Part shown: one piece after another, positions 1,937 through 47,907 of the stretch
Layout of the letters: each line of letters begins with the position of its first letter
Position numbering within the stretch: position 1 is the first letter of the stretch
Source of the DNA: an uncultured Chryseobacterium sp.
GTDB taxonomy: Bacteria > Bacteroidota > Bacteroidia > Palsa-965
Assembly: GCA_964394965.1 (NCBI GenBank)
Contig: CAYMZV010000001.1
Location: 1-47,907, forward strand
Length of the DNA: 47,907 nt
Reading direction: 5' to 3'
Notes under the pieces: model-generated
Databases searched by the model: none
The model's input: only the letters and a program-made list of their open reading frames with translations
What the model was told of the DNA's origin: nothing
Translations under genes and position numbers: made by a program

Positions 1937-2995
1937 ATGAAAAAAATCCTGCTCATCGAGGACAACATGGAGATGCGTGAAAACGCCGCTGAGATTCTCG
2001 AGCTTGCAAAATACACGGTGTTCACCGCCGAAAATGGAAAGGAAGGCGTTCGCCTTGCACAATCCGAAAAACCCGATCTTATCATTTGCGATATCATGAT
2101 GCCCGAACTCGATGGTTACGGCGTGTTGCACATGCTTTCGAAAAATCCGGAAACATCTTCCATCCCATTTATTTTTCTCACTGCCAAAGCCGAAAAAGCC
2201 GATCACCGGAAAGGAATGTCGATGGGTGCGGACGATTACCTCACAAAACCATTCGACGACATGGAATTGCTCGGGGCTGTGGAAGTGCGCCTGAAAAAAA
2301 GCGAACAGTTGAAAGCGCAATATTCACGCAACATCGAAGGGCTCAACGAATTCCTCTCCGAAGCGCAAGAACTCGGCGATCTTGTAAAACTTTCCGATAA
2401 AAGGAAAGTGAAAACCTTCAAGAAAAAAGATGTCATTTACCAGGAAGACGCTTTTCCTGCCGGAATCTTTTTCCTCAACAAGGGCAAGGTGAAAACAAGC
2501 AAGATCAATGAGGATGGAAAAGAATTCATCACCGCGTTGATCAACGAAGGTGAATTTTTCGGTTACGGCGCATTGCTCGAGGAATTGCCTTACAGCGATA
2601 CTGCGGTTGCCCTCGAGGAATCCGAAATATGCATCATTCCGAAAGAGGATTTTTTCTCCCTGCTTTTCAATAGCCGCGAAGTGGCGAGTGCATTCATCCG
2701 GATGCTGTCGAATGATGTGAAAGACAAGGAAGACCGTTTGTTGCGTTTGGCATACAACTCCGTTCGCAAGCGTGTGGCCGAAGCGCTGTTGCTTTTGAAG
2801 GAACGTTATGAAGACGGCAAAAAAGAAGTTTTCAGCATGGCGATTTCACGCGAGGATCTTGCCAATCTCGCCGGCACCGCGCCGGAAACCGTCATCAGGA
2901 CCTTGTCGGATTTCAAGGATGAGAAATTGGTTGAAGTGAAAGGCAGCACAATCACCTTGTTGGATGCGGCGAAATTGCAGAAGATGAAAAATTAG
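1937..2995 (+). CDS. Hybrid response regulator: CheY-like receiver + cNMP-binding (Crp/Fnr-type) domain + Crp-type HTH
   Basis: 352-aa ORF starting 5 nt after the kinase stop. Receiver motifs are LLIEDN, DLIICDIMMPELDG and LTAK. A Crp-like beta-barrel follows (IFFLNKGKVK...GEFFGYGALL), then a C-terminal HTH (REDLANLAGTAPETVIRTLSDF). Confidence 0.85.
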   Translation: MKKILLIEDNMEMRENAAEILELAKYTVFTAENGKEGVRLAQSEKPDLIICDIMMPELDGYGVLHMLSKNPETSSIPFIFLTAKAEKADHRKGMSMGADDYLTKPFDDMELLGAVEVRLKKSEQLKAQYSRNIEGLNEFLSEAQELGDLVKLSDKRKVKTFKKKDVIYQEDAFPAGIFFLNKGKVKTSKINEDGKEFITALINEGEFFGYGALLEELPYSDTAVALEESEICIIPKEDFFSLLFNSREVASAFIRMLSNDVKDKEDRLLRLAYNSVRKRVAEALLLLKERYEDGKKEVFSMAISREDLANLAGTAPETVIRTLSDFKDEKLVEVKGSTITLLDAAKLQKMKN

Positions 2996-3023
2996 TTGCA
3001 GCATCATTTGTTAGAAAATTGTA

Positions 3024-3055
3024 AAATGGCTTTTCCCCACGGAAAGGCCATTTTT
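3024..3055 (+). terminator. Intrinsic terminator after the response-regulator gene
   Basis: AATGGCTTTTCC / GGAAAGGCCATT forms a 12-bp stem (one G-U pair) with loop CCAC, followed by a T run. Confidence 0.6.
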
Positions 3056-3125
3056 CGTAAGAGGGAATTTTGTTGTAAATTCACTATGCTGCAAATTACC
3101 ATTCAATTCACACAAGAAAATTTTC

Positions 3126-6100
3126 GTGAAAAAAATCTACGCACTCTTCCTCCTTGCATTTTTCTTCGGAACAATTGCAACGGCTCAGAAATTCATGAAT
3201 GAACCTGTCTTGAGCCAACGCCCTGCCGCCAAAAAAGTCACTTTCTGGGATGTGCAGAAAGCATTCGCAGATTATTGGCAAGACAAAACGCCCAGCGATA
3301 CCGAATCCGAAAACGCGGAAGACGGCGGCTACCAACAATACAAAAGGTGGGAATGGTTTGTGAAACAACGGACCTATCCGTCGGGAAATTTTCCAAGCCC
3401 CGATATTCTGTTTACGGAATACCAGCAATACAAGAATTCACCGATGCGCAATTCGCAGAACAACACGACAAGCGCCAATTGGTCGTTCATCGGACCACAC
3501 ATTGTTCCGGGCGGCGGAGGCGGTGCGGGAAGAATCAATTGCATCACATTCGATCCCACCAATTCAAACATCATCTGGATCGGTGCCGCGTGTGGAGGAT
3601 TGTGGAAATCCACCGACGGGGGAGTGACATGGAGTTCGAATACGGATTTGCTTCCCTCGTTGAGTGTTTCGGACATTGTCATTGATCCGACCAATTCACA
3701 AATCATGTATCTCGCAACGGGAGACAAATACGGTATTTATTGGCAATATGAAACTTGGGGACATTACAGCGCAGGAATCCTGAAATCAACCGATGGCGGG
3801 TTGTCTTGGAATACAACCGGCATGACTTACGTTTCATCCAACGTCACCGTCATCCAGCGATTGATCATTGATCCCAACAATACGAATATCCTTTTCGCCG
3901 CAACAAACGTCGGTGTTTTCAAGACAACCAATGGCGGAACATCCTGGAACAATTTGCGTACGGGAAAATATTACGACATCGAATTCAATCCGGGAAACGA
4001 CAACATTGTTTATACCGGTGACAGTACAGGATTCTTGCTTTCCGTGAATCAGGGAACAACCTGGAATTATGTGGCAGGCGTTACATCAACGGGAAGGACT
4101 TCCATTTCGGTTACGCCGGCAAACCCTTCTGCGGTTTATTGCTGGAGCGAAGGCGGGAATTTATATTACTCGAATAATTCCGCCACTTCATTCACTGCAC
4201 GAACGGATCCGAGCAGCGCTTCAACACCCTACGGATATTACGACATGGTGCTTGAAGTTTCTCCCGTCAATGAAAATATTTTATTCGCCGGCGGATTGAG
4301 TGTTGCAAAATCGGTTGACGGTGGCAATACGTGGACGACTGTTTCCGATTGGTCGGGGTGGCCGAATTCAAATTATGTACACGCCGACAATCACGCACAG
4401 AAATTTTTGCCGGGAAGCAACAACGTGATTTTTTCCTGCAACGATGGTGGAATTTTCAAATCAACCGATCAGGGAACTACGTGGTCCGACCTGAGCAATG
4501 GCATCGACATCAAGCAATATTACCGTCTCGGTGGATCTTTTCTAACACCGAACCTGATTTATGCCGGAGCGCAGGATAATGGAACCGATCGCGTGACGGC
4601 AATGAGTTCCGCCACGCAAGTGTACGGTGCGGATGGACAGGAAGCGTTAGTAGATTATACCGATGACAATACCGTTTTCGTTTCTTCACAGAGCGGAAAT
4701 TTTTCAAAGTCAACGGATGGCGGAGTGACATTCAACGGCCTGAGTTCTTACGGTTGCGATTGGACTTCGCCTTTGATCATGGATCCGACAAACCATGATG
4801 TGATGTGGATGGGTTCGACCGATGCGATGAAATCCATTGACAATGGAGTGACGTGGACCAATTCTTCCAACGGCGCTTTCGATGGCGGCTGTGTTTATTC
4901 ATTGGAAGTTTGTCATGGAAATCCGAATTACGTTTATGCTGCCACTTTCGGCCACATTTACAGAACCACCAACGGGGGAAATACATGGACAAACATTACG
5001 GCATCACTTCCCGTTTCTCTCGCTGCGATTACAGGAATTACAATCAGCGATCAGAATCCGGATAAGGCGTGGGTGAATTTTTCCGGATTTTCTGCGGGCA
5101 ATAAAGTTTATTATACGAATGACGGTGGCGTGACGTGGACAAATTATTCCGGAACATTGCCCAACATTCCTGCGAATTGCATCGAGTATCAGAACGCAAC
5201 AAATGATTTGCTTTATCTCGGAACCGACTTCGGCGTTTTTTATCGCGATGCTTCCATGGCGGATTGGCAACCGTACAACACCGGTTTGCCGAATGTGATT
5301 GTGGATGAATTGGAAATCAATTACGGTGTGAGCAAACTGCGCGCGGCAACTTACGGAAGGGGATTGTGGGAAAGTGATCTCGTTGTTTCCACACTGAACA
5401 ATCTGGATGCAAGTGCATTCACCATGACGTATCCTCCAGCCACCACTTGCGATACTGTCATTGCACCATCCATCAAAATCCGCAATGCAGGTATCGATAC
5501 CATTTTCAGTGTCGACTTGCATTACAAGATGGATGCACAATCGTGGCAGGTTTACAATTGGAGCGGCACACTTCCTTCATTGGCAACGGCGAATATTGTT
5601 TTGCCGACGTACACGCTCACTCCAACCACGCACACGGTAACCGCATACACGACCAATCCGAATTCATCAACGGACCAGAATCTGTACAACGACACGATCG
5701 TGCGCACATTTACGATTTTCGGAAATCCGCTTGCAACAACGGCTCCTCCAATTGTCCAGGGATTTGTGCCTGCCGCTTTTCCTCCGACGAATTGGACGCT
5801 GCAGAATTCCTCCAACTTATGGTCGCGCTCCAGTTCGGTCGGCGGTTATGGAAATTCAACGCAATCGGCGATGGCTAATTTTTACAACATCAACGGCGGC
5901 AACGACAAACTCGTTACGCAGTATGTCGATTTTTCAAATACCGTTGCGCCCATCACGTTGTATTTCGATGTTGCGTACCAGCCTTACGGACCGAGTTATT
6001 CCGATTCGCTTGTTGTTGAACTCTATTCCGATTGTCCGGGAATTCCGGAACGGATTTATGCAAAGGGAAGTTCAACGTTGGCCACTGCGCCGGCTTCCAC

Positions 6101-41491: not shown

Positions 41492-41944
41492 TTAAAAGTG
41501 ATCAAACGCGCCGCGTGCATCTGCATCGCTGTTTGGCTCGTCACGATCGTCACCGATTTCCGGAGTTTCATCATTCATTTCCAATGCAGGCTCATCTTCG
41601 TGCATCAATTCCTCGTGATGAGGTGCAGGAGCTGCGGGTTTTTGAACGACTACCGGTTTTTTTGGAGCTGCAGGCGCTTTAGGGGCCGCAACTTTTGCAG
41701 GAGCTACTGCTTTTTTCACAACGGCTTTTTTAGGAGCCGCCTTTTTTGCAACAGCTTTTTTAGGAGCCGCTTTTTTCTTTGCTGGTTTCGCCTTTTTAGC
41801 TGCTGCCTTTTTTTTGGGAGCTGCTTTCTTAGTTGCTTTTTTTGCGGATTTTTTTGCCGCTTTTTTTACAACTTTTTTGGCGGATTTTTTCTTGACCGGT
41901 TTTGCCTTCTTGGCAGCCTTGCCTTTTTTCGCCTTTTTAGCCAT
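41492..41944 (-). CDS. Histone-H1-like Lys/Ala/Pro-rich basic protein with an acidic C-terminal tail
   Basis: 150 aa. Residues 2-115 are almost only K/A/P/V (AKKAKKGKAAKKAKPVKKKSAKK...). The last ~35 aa are acidic (HHEELMHEDEPALEMNDETPEIGDDRDEPNSDAD). It starts 13 nt after the ileS stop. Confidence 0.7.
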   Translation of the reverse strand: MAKKAKKGKAAKKAKPVKKKSAKKVVKKAAKKSAKKATKKAAPKKKAAAKKAKPAKKKAAPKKAVAKKAAPKKAVVKKAVAPAKVAAPKAPAAPKKPVVVQKPAAPAPHHEELMHEDEPALEMNDETPEIGDDRDEPNSDADARGAFDHF

Positions 41945-45535: not shown

Positions 45536-45543
45536 CAAAAATA
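45536..45543 (-). promoter_or_regulatory. Candidate -7 promoter box (reverse complement TATTTTTG) for ileS
   Basis: CAAAAATA on the plus strand, 30 nt upstream of the ileS ATG (45506). Confidence 0.35.
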
Positions 45544-45555
45544 CGGAAAAGGGAC

Positions 45556-45576
45556 GTGAGATGTGAGATGTGAAAT
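45556..45576. repeat. Heptamer tandem repeat (GTGAGAT GTGAGAT GTGAAAT)
   Basis: Three consecutive 7-mers directly upstream of the candidate ileS promoter. Confidence 0.8.
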
Positions 45577-45591
45577 GAGGGAGAAAAGCTG

Positions 45592-46892: not shown

Positions 46893-46929
46893 TGTTGGAA
46901 AATTGGAAAGTTGAACTGTTGGAAAATTG
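46893..46929. repeat. 13-bp direct repeat TGTTGGAAAATTG x2 (period 24) just upstream of the TPR-lipoprotein start
   Basis: Copies at 46893-46905 and 46917-46929. Confidence 0.7.
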
Positions 46930-46984
46930 TAAAGCGGAAAAACGGTTTTAATTTTATTGATCGTAGCCTTTCAATTTTCAACTT

Positions 46985-47401
46985 TTAAATGGTGGCAATC
47001 ACTTTCAGTTCGATGGCGATGGGGGTGGGAAGGCAATTGATTTCTAGTGTGGTTCTGCAAGGCGGATTTTCCTTGAAATATTCGGCCCACAGTTTATTGT
47101 AAATGGGAAAATCGTCTTTCATGTTGGTGAGGAAAACGGTGACGTCAATGATCTTGTCCCAACCGCTTCCGGAATCTTCCAGGATATATTTCACATTCTG
47201 GAAAACGCTGCGGCATTGTTTTTCGATGTCGTAGGAAATTATTTTCCCGTTTTCATCGAGTTCCACTCCCGGAATTTTTTTCGTCCCCTTTTCGCGCGGA
47301 CCGACACCGGATAAAAACAGGAAATTCCCCACGCGTTTCGCATGCGGATAAAGGCCTACAGGTTCAGGCGCTTTGGAAGAGTTGATGGATTGTTCGGACA
47401 T
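46985..47401 (-). CDS. ridA: RidA/YjgF-family reactive-intermediate deaminase
   Basis: 138 aa with a typical RidA core (FLFLSGVGPRE...QCRSVFQNVKYILEDSG...IIDVTVFLTNM...PCRTTLEI..LP..IAIELKVIA). Confidence 0.85.
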   Translation of the reverse strand: MSEQSINSSKAPEPVGLYPHAKRVGNFLFLSGVGPREKGTKKIPGVELDENGKIISYDIEKQCRSVFQNVKYILEDSGSGWDKIIDVTVFLTNMKDDFPIYNKLWAEYFKENPPCRTTLEINCLPTPIAIELKVIATI

Positions 47402-47405
47402 GCCG

Positions 47406-47413
47406 CAAAGGTA
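47406..47413 (-). promoter_or_regulatory. Candidate -7 promoter box (reverse complement TACCTTTG) 4 nt before the ridA ATG, implying a leaderless mRNA
   Basis: CAAAGGTA on the plus strand at 47406-47413. The ridA start codon is at 47399-47401. Confidence 0.35.
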
Positions 47414-47445
47414 ATGTGCTGATGTGCTGATATGCTAATGTGCCG
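47414..47445. repeat. Octamer tandem repeat (ATGTGCTG ATGTGCTG ATATGCTA ATGTGCCG)
   Basis: Four consecutive 8-mers fill the gap between the ridA -7 box and the first 124-nt repeat unit. Confidence 0.8.
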
Positions 47446-47907
47446 ATGAAAATACTTAAGCGTTACCTCTTCTCCACCTTGGCATCCCAAACTTCACCCA
47501 CGGTTAGGGAGAAGAAGCCGGGGTGGTGAGATGGTGAGGGTGAAGTGAAAAATAAAAAGTATTCTACCGGTGAAAACACTTAGCCGTTACCTCTTCACCA
47601 CCCTGGCATCCCAAACTTCACCCAATGGTCAAGGAGAAGAAACCGGGGTGGTGAGCTGGTGAGGGTGAAGTGAAAAATAAAAAGTATTCTGTCTATGAAA
47701 ACACTTAACCGTTACCTCTTCACCACCCTGGCATCCCAAACTTCACCCACGGTTAGGGAGAAGAAGCCGGGGTGGTGAGATGGTGAGGGTGAAGTGAAAA
47801 ATAAAAAGTATTCTGTCTATGAAAACACTTAACCGTTACCTCTTCACCACCCTGGCATCCCAAACTTCACCCACGGTTAGGGAGAAGAAGCCGGGGTGGT
47901 GAGATGG
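47446..47907 (+). repeat. Tandem array of 124/125-nt units (3 full units plus 89 nt of a fourth) that continues past the window edge
   Basis: Unit starts at 47446, 47570, 47695 and 47819. Units 3 and 4 are identical over the visible 89 nt. Units 1 and 2 each differ from unit 3 at about 7 positions, and unit 2 has one extra nucleotide. No ORF of 60 aa or more on either strand. Confidence 0.9.

Follow-up and report, generated by a model that had tools for sequence, protein, structure and literature searches.

What is the run of near-identical, hairpin-forming repeats that lies upstream of ridA in an uncultured Bacteroidia species, and how did it come to stand there? We addressed this question in a stretch of 47,907 nucleotides (hereafter the window) assigned to an uncultured Chryseobacterium sp. 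of the GTDB lineage Palsa-965 (assembly GCA_964394965.1, contig CAYMZV010000001.1, positions 1 to 47,907), at the end of which 3.7 copies of a 124/125-nt unit form a tandem array (47446-47907) between the ridA promoter and the upstream gene. An initial annotation, made from the letters alone, had offered three options for this array: a set of structured non-coding RNAs, a multi-copy small-peptide locus, and a satellite resembling repetitive extragenic palindromic (REP) sequences or bacterial interspersed mosaic elements (BIMEs). We favour, with moderate confidence, the view that the array is a young, lineage-restricted palindromic minisatellite of variable copy number (a variable number tandem repeat, VNTR) that was amplified locally.

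The tandem organisation was recovered by Tandem Repeats Finder (TRF), which reported for 47446-47907 a period of 124, 3.7 copies, 93% matches and a score of 817; the array was the sole repeat in the window with a period above 30. A 30-nt core of the array matched three times in the window as compared to none in 100 shuffles, with no occurrence outside the array, and no unit-like copy was seen in the remaining 47.4 kb of the window. Unit 1 (47446-47569, 124 nt) is proximal to ridA and is the most degenerate of the full-length units in the window, differing from unit 3 at positions 8, 15, 28 and 34 and in the last 4 nt. Unit 2 (47570-47694, 125 nt) carries a 1-nt insertion, an altered apical segment, and GTG as the start of the small open reading frame (mini-ORF) found in each unit. 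Unit 3 (47695-47818, 124 nt) served as our reference, and unit 4 (47819-47907) is cut by the window end after its first 89 nt, over which it is identical to unit 3. The units fall into two subtypes, with units 1, 3 and 4 belonging to subtype a (124 nt) and unit 2, together with a distal unit D seen in contigs L001 and L005, to subtype b (125 nt), whose different apical sequence (GGTCAAGGAG) and reading frame unit 2 and unit D have in common. Since units 3 and 4 are identical, adding an extra subtype-a unit, the window and the assembly end inside the array.

An exact look-up of the RidA protein retrieved 10 contigs, coming from six ENA assemblies, two Logan runs and two JGI metagenomes. Unit 1 was identical in 10/10 of these contigs, unit 2 was identical in every contig that reached it, and the order of these two units did not vary. 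Since these contigs derive from different samples and assemblers and concur on units 1 and 2, the array is real and not an assembly artefact, the concern raised by the initial annotation; its description as an open-ended 124/125-nt tandem array stands on the repeat finder, the shuffles and these independent contigs alike. All short-read contigs end within the array, except for L005, which reaches the gene on the far side but in which the array has visibly collapsed to two units. There, unit D begins about 6 nt past the stop codon of the co-directional upstream gene. In L001 the order is D-3'-2-1-ridA, that is, the subtypes alternate (a-b-a-b), and in the window it is 1-2-3-3..., giving at least 5 units when D is counted. 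Extension of the contig, proposed at the outset as a way to learn both the array length and the far gene, thus yielded the gene (in L005 only) but the length only as a lower bound of at least 4-5 units overall.

Comparison between strains showed where the array varies. The unit that follows unit 2 exists in three versions, 1-3 single-nucleotide polymorphisms apart per 124 nt (in short-read assemblies), and variation is concentrated in the inner units, with units 1 and 2 constant. The flanks showed 2 mismatches in approximately 21.4 kb of comparisons, and are therefore about 99.99% identical. Unit number and content thus differ between strains within conserved flanks, as is expected of a VNTR, with the caveat that the assemblies compared are built from short reads.

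Each unit is built of two 34-nt inverted arms with a 27-nt apical segment between them, and a 29-nt A/T-rich linker. An inverted-repeat search placed the C-rich arm of unit 3 at 47702-47735 (CACTTAACCGTTACCTCTTCACCACCCTGGCATC), with equivalents at 47577-47610 and 47826-47859 and, by register, at about 47453-47486; the G-rich arm of unit 3 lies at 47763-47796 (GAAGCCGGGGTGGTGAGATGGTGAGGGTGAAGTG), with equivalents at 47514-47547 and 47643-47672 and a partial one at 47887-47907. The linker between hairpins occupies 47797-47825 (29 nt; UUUUCAUAGACAGAAUACUUUUUAUUUUU on the minus strand). Over the five arm pairs detected, complementarity is gap-free at 73-77%, the figure for the two 34-nt arms of the unit being 76%. 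A G-rich arm has two possible partners, the C-rich arm within its unit (27-nt loop) and the one in the next unit (29-nt loop), and for the plus strand both registers have a predicted energy of about -53 kcal/mol. Neither arm has an internal dyad, and on reading the units we saw no GTAG/CTAC or CGTC/GACG at the arm ends, these tetramers occurring only in the linker of units 1 and 2 and in the apical loop of unit D.

The minimum-energy structure of the unit predicted by RNAfold is a single nested, imperfect hairpin of about 95 nt. For unit 3 its energy is -53.2 kcal/mol on the plus strand (z -6.8 versus shuffles) and -44.4 kcal/mol on the minus strand (z -3.8). Three pairs of complementary blocks had been pointed out in the unit, and we found all of them in place: A with A' (47707-47712 and 47749-47754), B with B' (47720-47731 and 47767-47778, 12 bp including one G-U) and C with C' (47740-47748 and 47787-47795). 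Their crossing order had been taken to suggest pseudoknots or mutually exclusive folds, a prediction that did not hold, as one nested hairpin accounts for every block; a pseudoknot was accordingly rejected. In this hairpin B:B' is lengthened to 14 bp, a small apical stem closes the top, and in the outer part the 5' portion of the C-rich arm, block A included, pairs with the 3' portion of the G-rich arm, that is, block C'. The A:A' and C:C' pairings are alternative registers, made possible by internal repetition: the C-rich half has two copies of CTTCACC and the G-rich half three of GGTGA(G/A). A G-quadruplex was rejected as weak, the G tracts allowing two tetrads only. The consensus hairpin contains 4-5 G-U pairs on the plus strand versus 1 on the minus strand, an imbalance that explains the energy difference between the strands; as only 5-6 pairs are informative, this strand bias is not statistically significant.

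If the units were conserved for their structure or for a peptide, their variants should carry the traces of such selection, as the initial annotation had proposed for the nucleotide or structure level. Our comparison used six different unit sequences, taken from the window and from the additional contigs and all of one species, which leaves a covariation test with low power. Of 35 hairpin pairs none had changed on both sides; 12 vary, with 3 kept by wobble and 9 broken. Variable columns were roughly as frequent in stems as outside them, and the recent transitions were tolerated equally on the two strands (3 on the plus strand and 3 on the minus strand). Each unit does have a mini-ORF with a start codon after an A-rich stretch, GTG in unit 2, as had been described. 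The suspicion that the frameshift in unit 2 weakens the peptide idea proved right, as two frames occur among the units, ending in ...SPTVREKKPGW in subtype a and in ...SP(N/D)GQGEE(T/A)GVV(S/R)W in subtype b. The ratio of non-synonymous to synonymous changes is 3:1 between units 1 and 3 and 5:2 between D and unit 2, that is, near neutral. With neither compensatory change in the hairpin nor purifying selection on the mini-ORF among these within-species variants, the proposed conservation was not borne out, and the pattern of variation fits a fast-evolving repeat that is homogenised by recombination, and not a constrained RNA or peptide.

The distribution of the element points in the same direction. 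We collected 80 loci of RidA orthologues (83-93% identity) from uncultured Bacteroidia metagenome-assembled genomes (MAGs) in GTDB and 4 more from the closest RidA clusters, 84 in all as DNA. By blastn, nhmmer and TRF these 84 loci (83-94% identity) contained no unit-like sequence, and no array upstream of ridA, a single 10.7-bit nhmmer match in the ileS start region of L094 being noise. A closer relative, at 96% identity, has a gap of only 130 nt upstream of ridA, as judged from the gene table alone. Upstream of ridA each of the 96% and 94% relatives has another neighbour: one a divergent gene for 575 aa at a distance of 130 nt, one a fructosamine kinase at 34 nt, and one again a divergent gene, for 543 aa. 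Exact-pattern scans of GTDB genomes, of JGI metagenomes (two patterns) and of IMG/VR gave 0 matches each, and blastn against plasmids and phages gave none. The array had been thought to lie outside described RNA families, and this held: at the gathering threshold Rfam recognised only one tRNA across the whole window, and at the E-value threshold it returned on the array only chance microRNA-like matches of at most 22 bits against gathering scores of 38-230 (the top one being mir-1224, at 22 bits against 105). A protein look-up of a 36-aa minus-strand ORF and a protein search with the concatenated array peptides, used as a proxy for dispersed copies, retrieved nothing, results that are uninformative insofar as such short ORFs are probably not indexed. 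The element is thus confined to one species-level lineage, at a synteny breakpoint.

Two further repeats came to light among the related loci. In L030 (11364-11657) an unrelated 102-nt unit with inverted arms is repeated 2.9 times with 93% matches. It takes up all of the space between two convergent genes, one of the YjbR family and one SprT-like, beginning at one stop codon and ending at the other. This array, the second minisatellite with palindromic units in the clade, suggests that amplification of terminator-region palindromes recurs there. At the contig end of another related MAG (L079:14-205) there is an array with a period of 76 nt and a GTTGT...ACAAC repeat, which looks CRISPR-like.

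The flanking genes show in which direction the array is most plausibly transcribed. As initially described, the array stands directly upstream of ridA, which lies on the minus strand (46985-47401) and encodes a 138-aa protein of the RidA/YjgF family (Pfam PF01042, E 9e-26). The promoter module of ridA (47402-47448, minus strand) is not derived from the repeat: it comprises a Bacteroidetes-type -7 box, TACCTTTG (47413-47406), 4 nt ahead of the ATG, and a set of 8-nt repeats (47414-47448). The same layout of octamer repeats, TAnnTTTG box, about 4 nt and ATG recurs in many relatives, the closest ones (L094, L091 and L011) among them, and the position and motif of the octamers are conserved among RidA orthologues of 93-100% identity. 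From this layout ridA looks leaderless, with an octamer-repeat upstream promoter element. Because ridA has its own conserved promoter module, the array lies upstream of the ridA promoter and is not a 5' untranslated region (UTR) or leader. The array occupies the entire gap from the stop codon of the upstream gene to this promoter, with unit 1 ending at the 8-nt repeats, and both of its neighbours are on the minus strand. Near matches to a -7 box (TACTTTTT at 47810-47803 and TATTTTTC at 47803-47796) occur in the linker once per unit and on the minus strand only, without the conserved G of TAnnTTTG; no TAnnTTTG was found on the plus strand beyond 46000.

The octamers number 3-4.4 before the ridA -7 box, reading GCACATYA in the window and CATCTGCA, repeated 4.4 times, in L094 (1722-1770), and octamers resembling ATTAGCAC stand upstream of ridA in L091 (4960-5000) and L011 (5930-6000). 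In the ileS promoter region of the window (45540-45580, minus strand) CACATCT is repeated three times about 12 nt upstream of a TATTTTTG box, which lies 30 nt before the ATG. The CACAT(C/T) of this region resembles both the ridA octamers and the CACTTCACCCTCACCATCTCAC stretch in the C-rich arm of the array (read on the minus strand), a likeness that may hint at the source material of the array unit. Between the stop codon of ridA and the next gene start, TTGGAAAA is repeated 4.9 times (46895-46933); the gene that follows encodes a tetratricopeptide repeat (TPR)-like lipoprotein (minus strand, probable start 46886), so that three genes in a row in the window have a tandem repeat of 7-8 nt shortly before their start. 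Just downstream of ileS, 15/30-nt repeats (41709-41890) lie within an ORF (41492-41944, minus strand) for a Lys/Ala-rich 150-aa protein that has no Pfam match and is probably a histone-H1-like basic protein; similar repeats were seen in L013 (12156-12277), L014 (10562-10805) and L094 (6692-6840), the last of these again just behind ileS.

Beyond the array lies a gene (L005:3-338), co-directional with ridA, for a membrane-anchored protein without a Pfam domain. Its 111-aa C-terminal fragment had no homologue in a search of 5.8 billion proteins; tblastn on the fetched loci revealed relatives at 28-33% identity in a few MAGs, at varying positions with respect to ridA. In L012, which has a homologue at 33% identity (2800-4263), a gene for a PemK/MazF-family toxin (E 1.5e-24) and an upstream 74-aa ORF, a putative antitoxin without a Pfam match, lie between this homologue and ridA (4331-4923). 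This cassette indicates that the position held by the array takes up accessory DNA in another species. The window is otherwise an ordinary Bacteroidota chromosome, with proteins carrying type IX secretion system (T9SS) tails and with ppk, ppx, ileS, lspA and asd, and a Pfam scan of its 39 genes found no transposase, integrase, REP-associated tyrosine transposase (RAYT) or Cas domains.

Taken together, a palindromic minisatellite could have arisen here as follows. Local amplification would have started from a terminator-like palindrome that stood at the 3' end of the upstream gene, and unequal recombination or replication slippage between the units would have homogenised them, producing the alternation of subtypes a and b as well as the strain-variable number and content. 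With two minus-strand neighbours and the upstream stop codon next to it, the array would most likely be transcribed from the minus strand, as a tail to the upstream gene. In each unit a hairpin of about 95 nt would then form, with a U-rich tract behind it (UUUUCAU...CUUUUUAUUUUU), and the stack of hairpins may serve as redundant weak terminators or 3'-end protectors, insulating the ridA promoter from read-through. The role of the array would be that of a terminator or insulator at most. Several observations weigh against this account. The hairpin is clearly more stable when read from the plus strand, which is antisense to each of the flanking genes, and the modelled energy and G-U bias agree better with a plus-strand RNA than with a terminator on the minus strand. 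In the minus-strand hairpin the base is weak and AU-rich (CACUU/AAGUG), the loop is large and only four U follow directly, and a simple terminator scan detected no site in the array. The invariance of units 1 and 2 in all contigs possibly reflects constraint instead of youth; the variants used for covariation, coming from one species, give that comparison little power; and dispersed copies in the genome of the species were checked over the 48-kb window only.

The alternative that survives best is a tandem array of small RNAs (sRNAs), in which hairpin RNAs of about 95-105 nt would act in trans or as a sponge. They could be cut, within the U-rich linkers, out of the 3' UTR that follows the upstream gene (minus strand), in the way RNase E releases CcsR1-4, be made from a near -7 box in each unit, or derive from an antisense transcript of the plus strand. 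A fold much stronger than that of shuffles (plus strand z -6.8, minus strand z -3.8) would suit such RNAs, as would the G-U bias toward one strand, the start of the array right past a stop codon, the U-rich linkers between hairpins, and the minus-strand near-box TACTTTTT, one per unit, which precedes the base of the hairpin by about 7-10 nt. A precedent exists in the four homologous CcsR sRNAs that derive from the ccaF1 3' UTR (PMC8034643). However, the array has no Rfam match and no homologue in the relatives and collections searched, it shows no compensatory change (9 of the 12 variable pairs being broken), its boxes lack the conserved G of TAnnTTTG, no canonical terminator is seen, and the strand that folds better is the one that has no promoter-like box and is antisense to both neighbours. 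We therefore consider an sRNA array somewhat unlikely.

We also considered a lineage-specific multi-copy locus for structured RNA, from which at least four hairpin RNAs of about 95 nt would come from one precursor and serve as trans regulators or as a sponge for protein or RNA. Such a precursor might be cut at the U-rich linkers, making the locus a Bacteroidia analogue of CcsR1-4, or might come from the plus strand, on which G-U pairs make the hairpin about 9 kcal/mol more stable. We regard this version as quite improbable. If the units were expressed as discrete RNAs, they would constitute a new and very young sRNA family, in a phylum in which, to our knowledge, few sRNA families have been characterised.

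A cluster of non-autonomous mobile elements of the type of REPINs (paired REP sequences forming a hairpin) or miniature inverted-repeat transposable elements (MITEs), in which the palindrome of about 95 nt would be mobilised by a transposase encoded elsewhere, is in our view unlikely. The hairpin formed by two inverted arms with a short spacer would be in keeping with such elements, and so would the tandem repetition that takes in the flanking linker, as in ordered REPIN clusters (PMC3116915), and the intergenic location at a breakpoint of synteny, where another MAG carries a PemK/MazF toxin cassette. Against it, there is no second copy in 47.4 kb of the window and no match in the collections, although the organism is present in at least 10 samples. 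Nor did we find a GTAG/CGTC tag at the arm ends, self-palindromic arms, discernible target-site duplications, or a transposase, RAYT or integrase among the 39 window genes.

A multi-copy small-peptide locus, in which each unit would encode a 27-30-aa peptide on the plus strand, is very improbable. The ATG or GTG that follows an A-rich, Bacteroidetes-type stretch in each unit is what such a locus would show, and the subtype-b units (unit 2 and D) keep one alternative frame. Two different C-termini nevertheless occur among the units, substitutions at about 3:1 and 5:2 are as expected under neutrality, the ORF lies inside a -53 kcal/mol hairpin with no plus-strand promoter box, and we found no protein homologues and no maturase or transporter genes nearby. 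A precursor peptide would be recognised by a frame kept in all copies, by an excess of synonymous changes and by partner genes, none of which is seen here; ribosomally synthesized and post-translationally modified peptide (RiPP) precursors were rejected for want of a conserved frame and of maturases, and a type I toxin-antitoxin system because the peptide is not hydrophobic enough. The initial annotation was right that the G-rich half carries TGA in all three frames (unit positions 82, 90, 96 and 101), and recoding of TGA was rejected because neighbouring genes such as ileS are intact under code 11. Finally, a spurious tandem duplication at a contig end, which the position of the array at the window edge and the breaking of short-read contigs inside it might suggest, can hardly be credited when ten contigs agree on units 1 and 2 and on ordered, distinct variants, L001 reads through and L005 reaches the far gene.

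If the array is indeed a palindromic minisatellite, it carries little biological weight, and would be of use mainly as a VNTR marker for strains of this uncultured Bacteroidia species. It accounts for the breaks of short-read assemblies upstream of ridA in this organism, and offers an example of a terminator-like palindrome amplified to fill a whole intergenic gap at a synteny breakpoint.

How does the array compare with known repeat systems? With CRISPR arrays and integron attC sites it shares regularly spaced repeats with dyad symmetry, and its hairpin ends resemble RYYYAAC/GTTRRRY on one side. CRISPR was rejected, in line with the earlier remark on the lack of unique spacers: each of the two inter-arm segments recurs from unit to unit, successive arms have opposite orientations, and there are no Cas domains in the window. 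The attC sites of integrons are defined by R''/R' boxes (RYYYAAC...GTTRRRY), extrahelical L-box bases, cassettes between the sites and a nearby intI. Here only one of the two boxes fits on either strand, the plus strand having ACTTAAC and GTGAAGT and the minus strand ACTTCAC and GTTAAGT; a cluster of attC sites lacking an integrase (CALIN) was rejected, as the arms are gap-free without extrahelical bases, the hairpins are 29 nt apart, and there are no cassettes and no integrase in the window. The enterobacterial repetitive intergenic consensus (ERIC) or intergenic repeat unit (IRU), an imperfect palindrome of about 127 bp, and the pneumococcal BOX are dispersed multi-copy families of Enterobacteria and Streptococcus, respectively. 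The array resembles them in unit size, imperfect dyad symmetry and intergenic position, and the boxB modules are likewise tandem; unlike them, it shows no dispersal in the window, and there is no sequence similarity.

Tandem homologous sRNA units are known from the LhrC1-4 of Listeria. CcsR1-4 of Rhodobacter are four homologous sRNAs cut by RNase E from the ccaF1 3' UTR (PMC8034643). The array is reminiscent of these and of 'cuckoo' sRNA arrays in having 4-5 homologous hairpin units of about 100 nt directly downstream of a gene, with C-rich stretches and with AU-rich linkers that RNase E might cleave. However, CcsR and LhrC show conservation between species, their promoters, processing sites and targets are defined, and both have Rfam entries, whereas the array is without homologue or covariation: neither cross-species conservation (84 loci as DNA) nor compensatory substitution (0/35 pairs changed on both sides) was found, and the single Rfam match to CcsR1 lies outside the array (14 bits against a gathering score of 65).

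Among the initial options, the REP/BIME-like satellite is the best architectural fit, in part only: the layout agrees, and a generic dispersed REP is not supported, as no dispersed copies were found. The BIME-2 of E. coli, which are arrays of alternating REPs, have a similar tandem layout of hairpin modules. In Pseudomonas fluorescens SBW25, near-identical hairpin-forming REPINs are arranged in ordered tandem clusters that include their flanks (PMC3116915). Like these clusters, the array has two inverted repeats that form a hairpin, a head-to-tail arrangement that takes in the flank, an intergenic position, and few units over several hundred bp. It differs in that its 34-nt arms are not self-palindromic REPs and carry no GTAG/CGTC tag, in that no dispersed copies or RAYT were seen in the window, and in that its host is a Bacteroidia species and not a Proteobacterium.

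The array also resembles VNTRs and minisatellites of the type of mycobacterial interspersed repetitive units (MIRUs), which occupy about 40 loci per genome and contain mini-ORFs overlapping the stop and start codons of neighbouring genes. These have in common with the array tandem intergenic units of about 50-125 bp between co-directional genes, polymorphism between strains, and a mini-ORF per unit. The array differs from MIRUs in being known from one locus, in its long palindromic units, and in the downstream gene having its own promoter. Its units, head to tail and within the range of tens to about 130 bp in an intergenic region, are those of a minisatellite, and in this comparison the array is one more of a known type, a bacterial intergenic VNTR with palindromic units.

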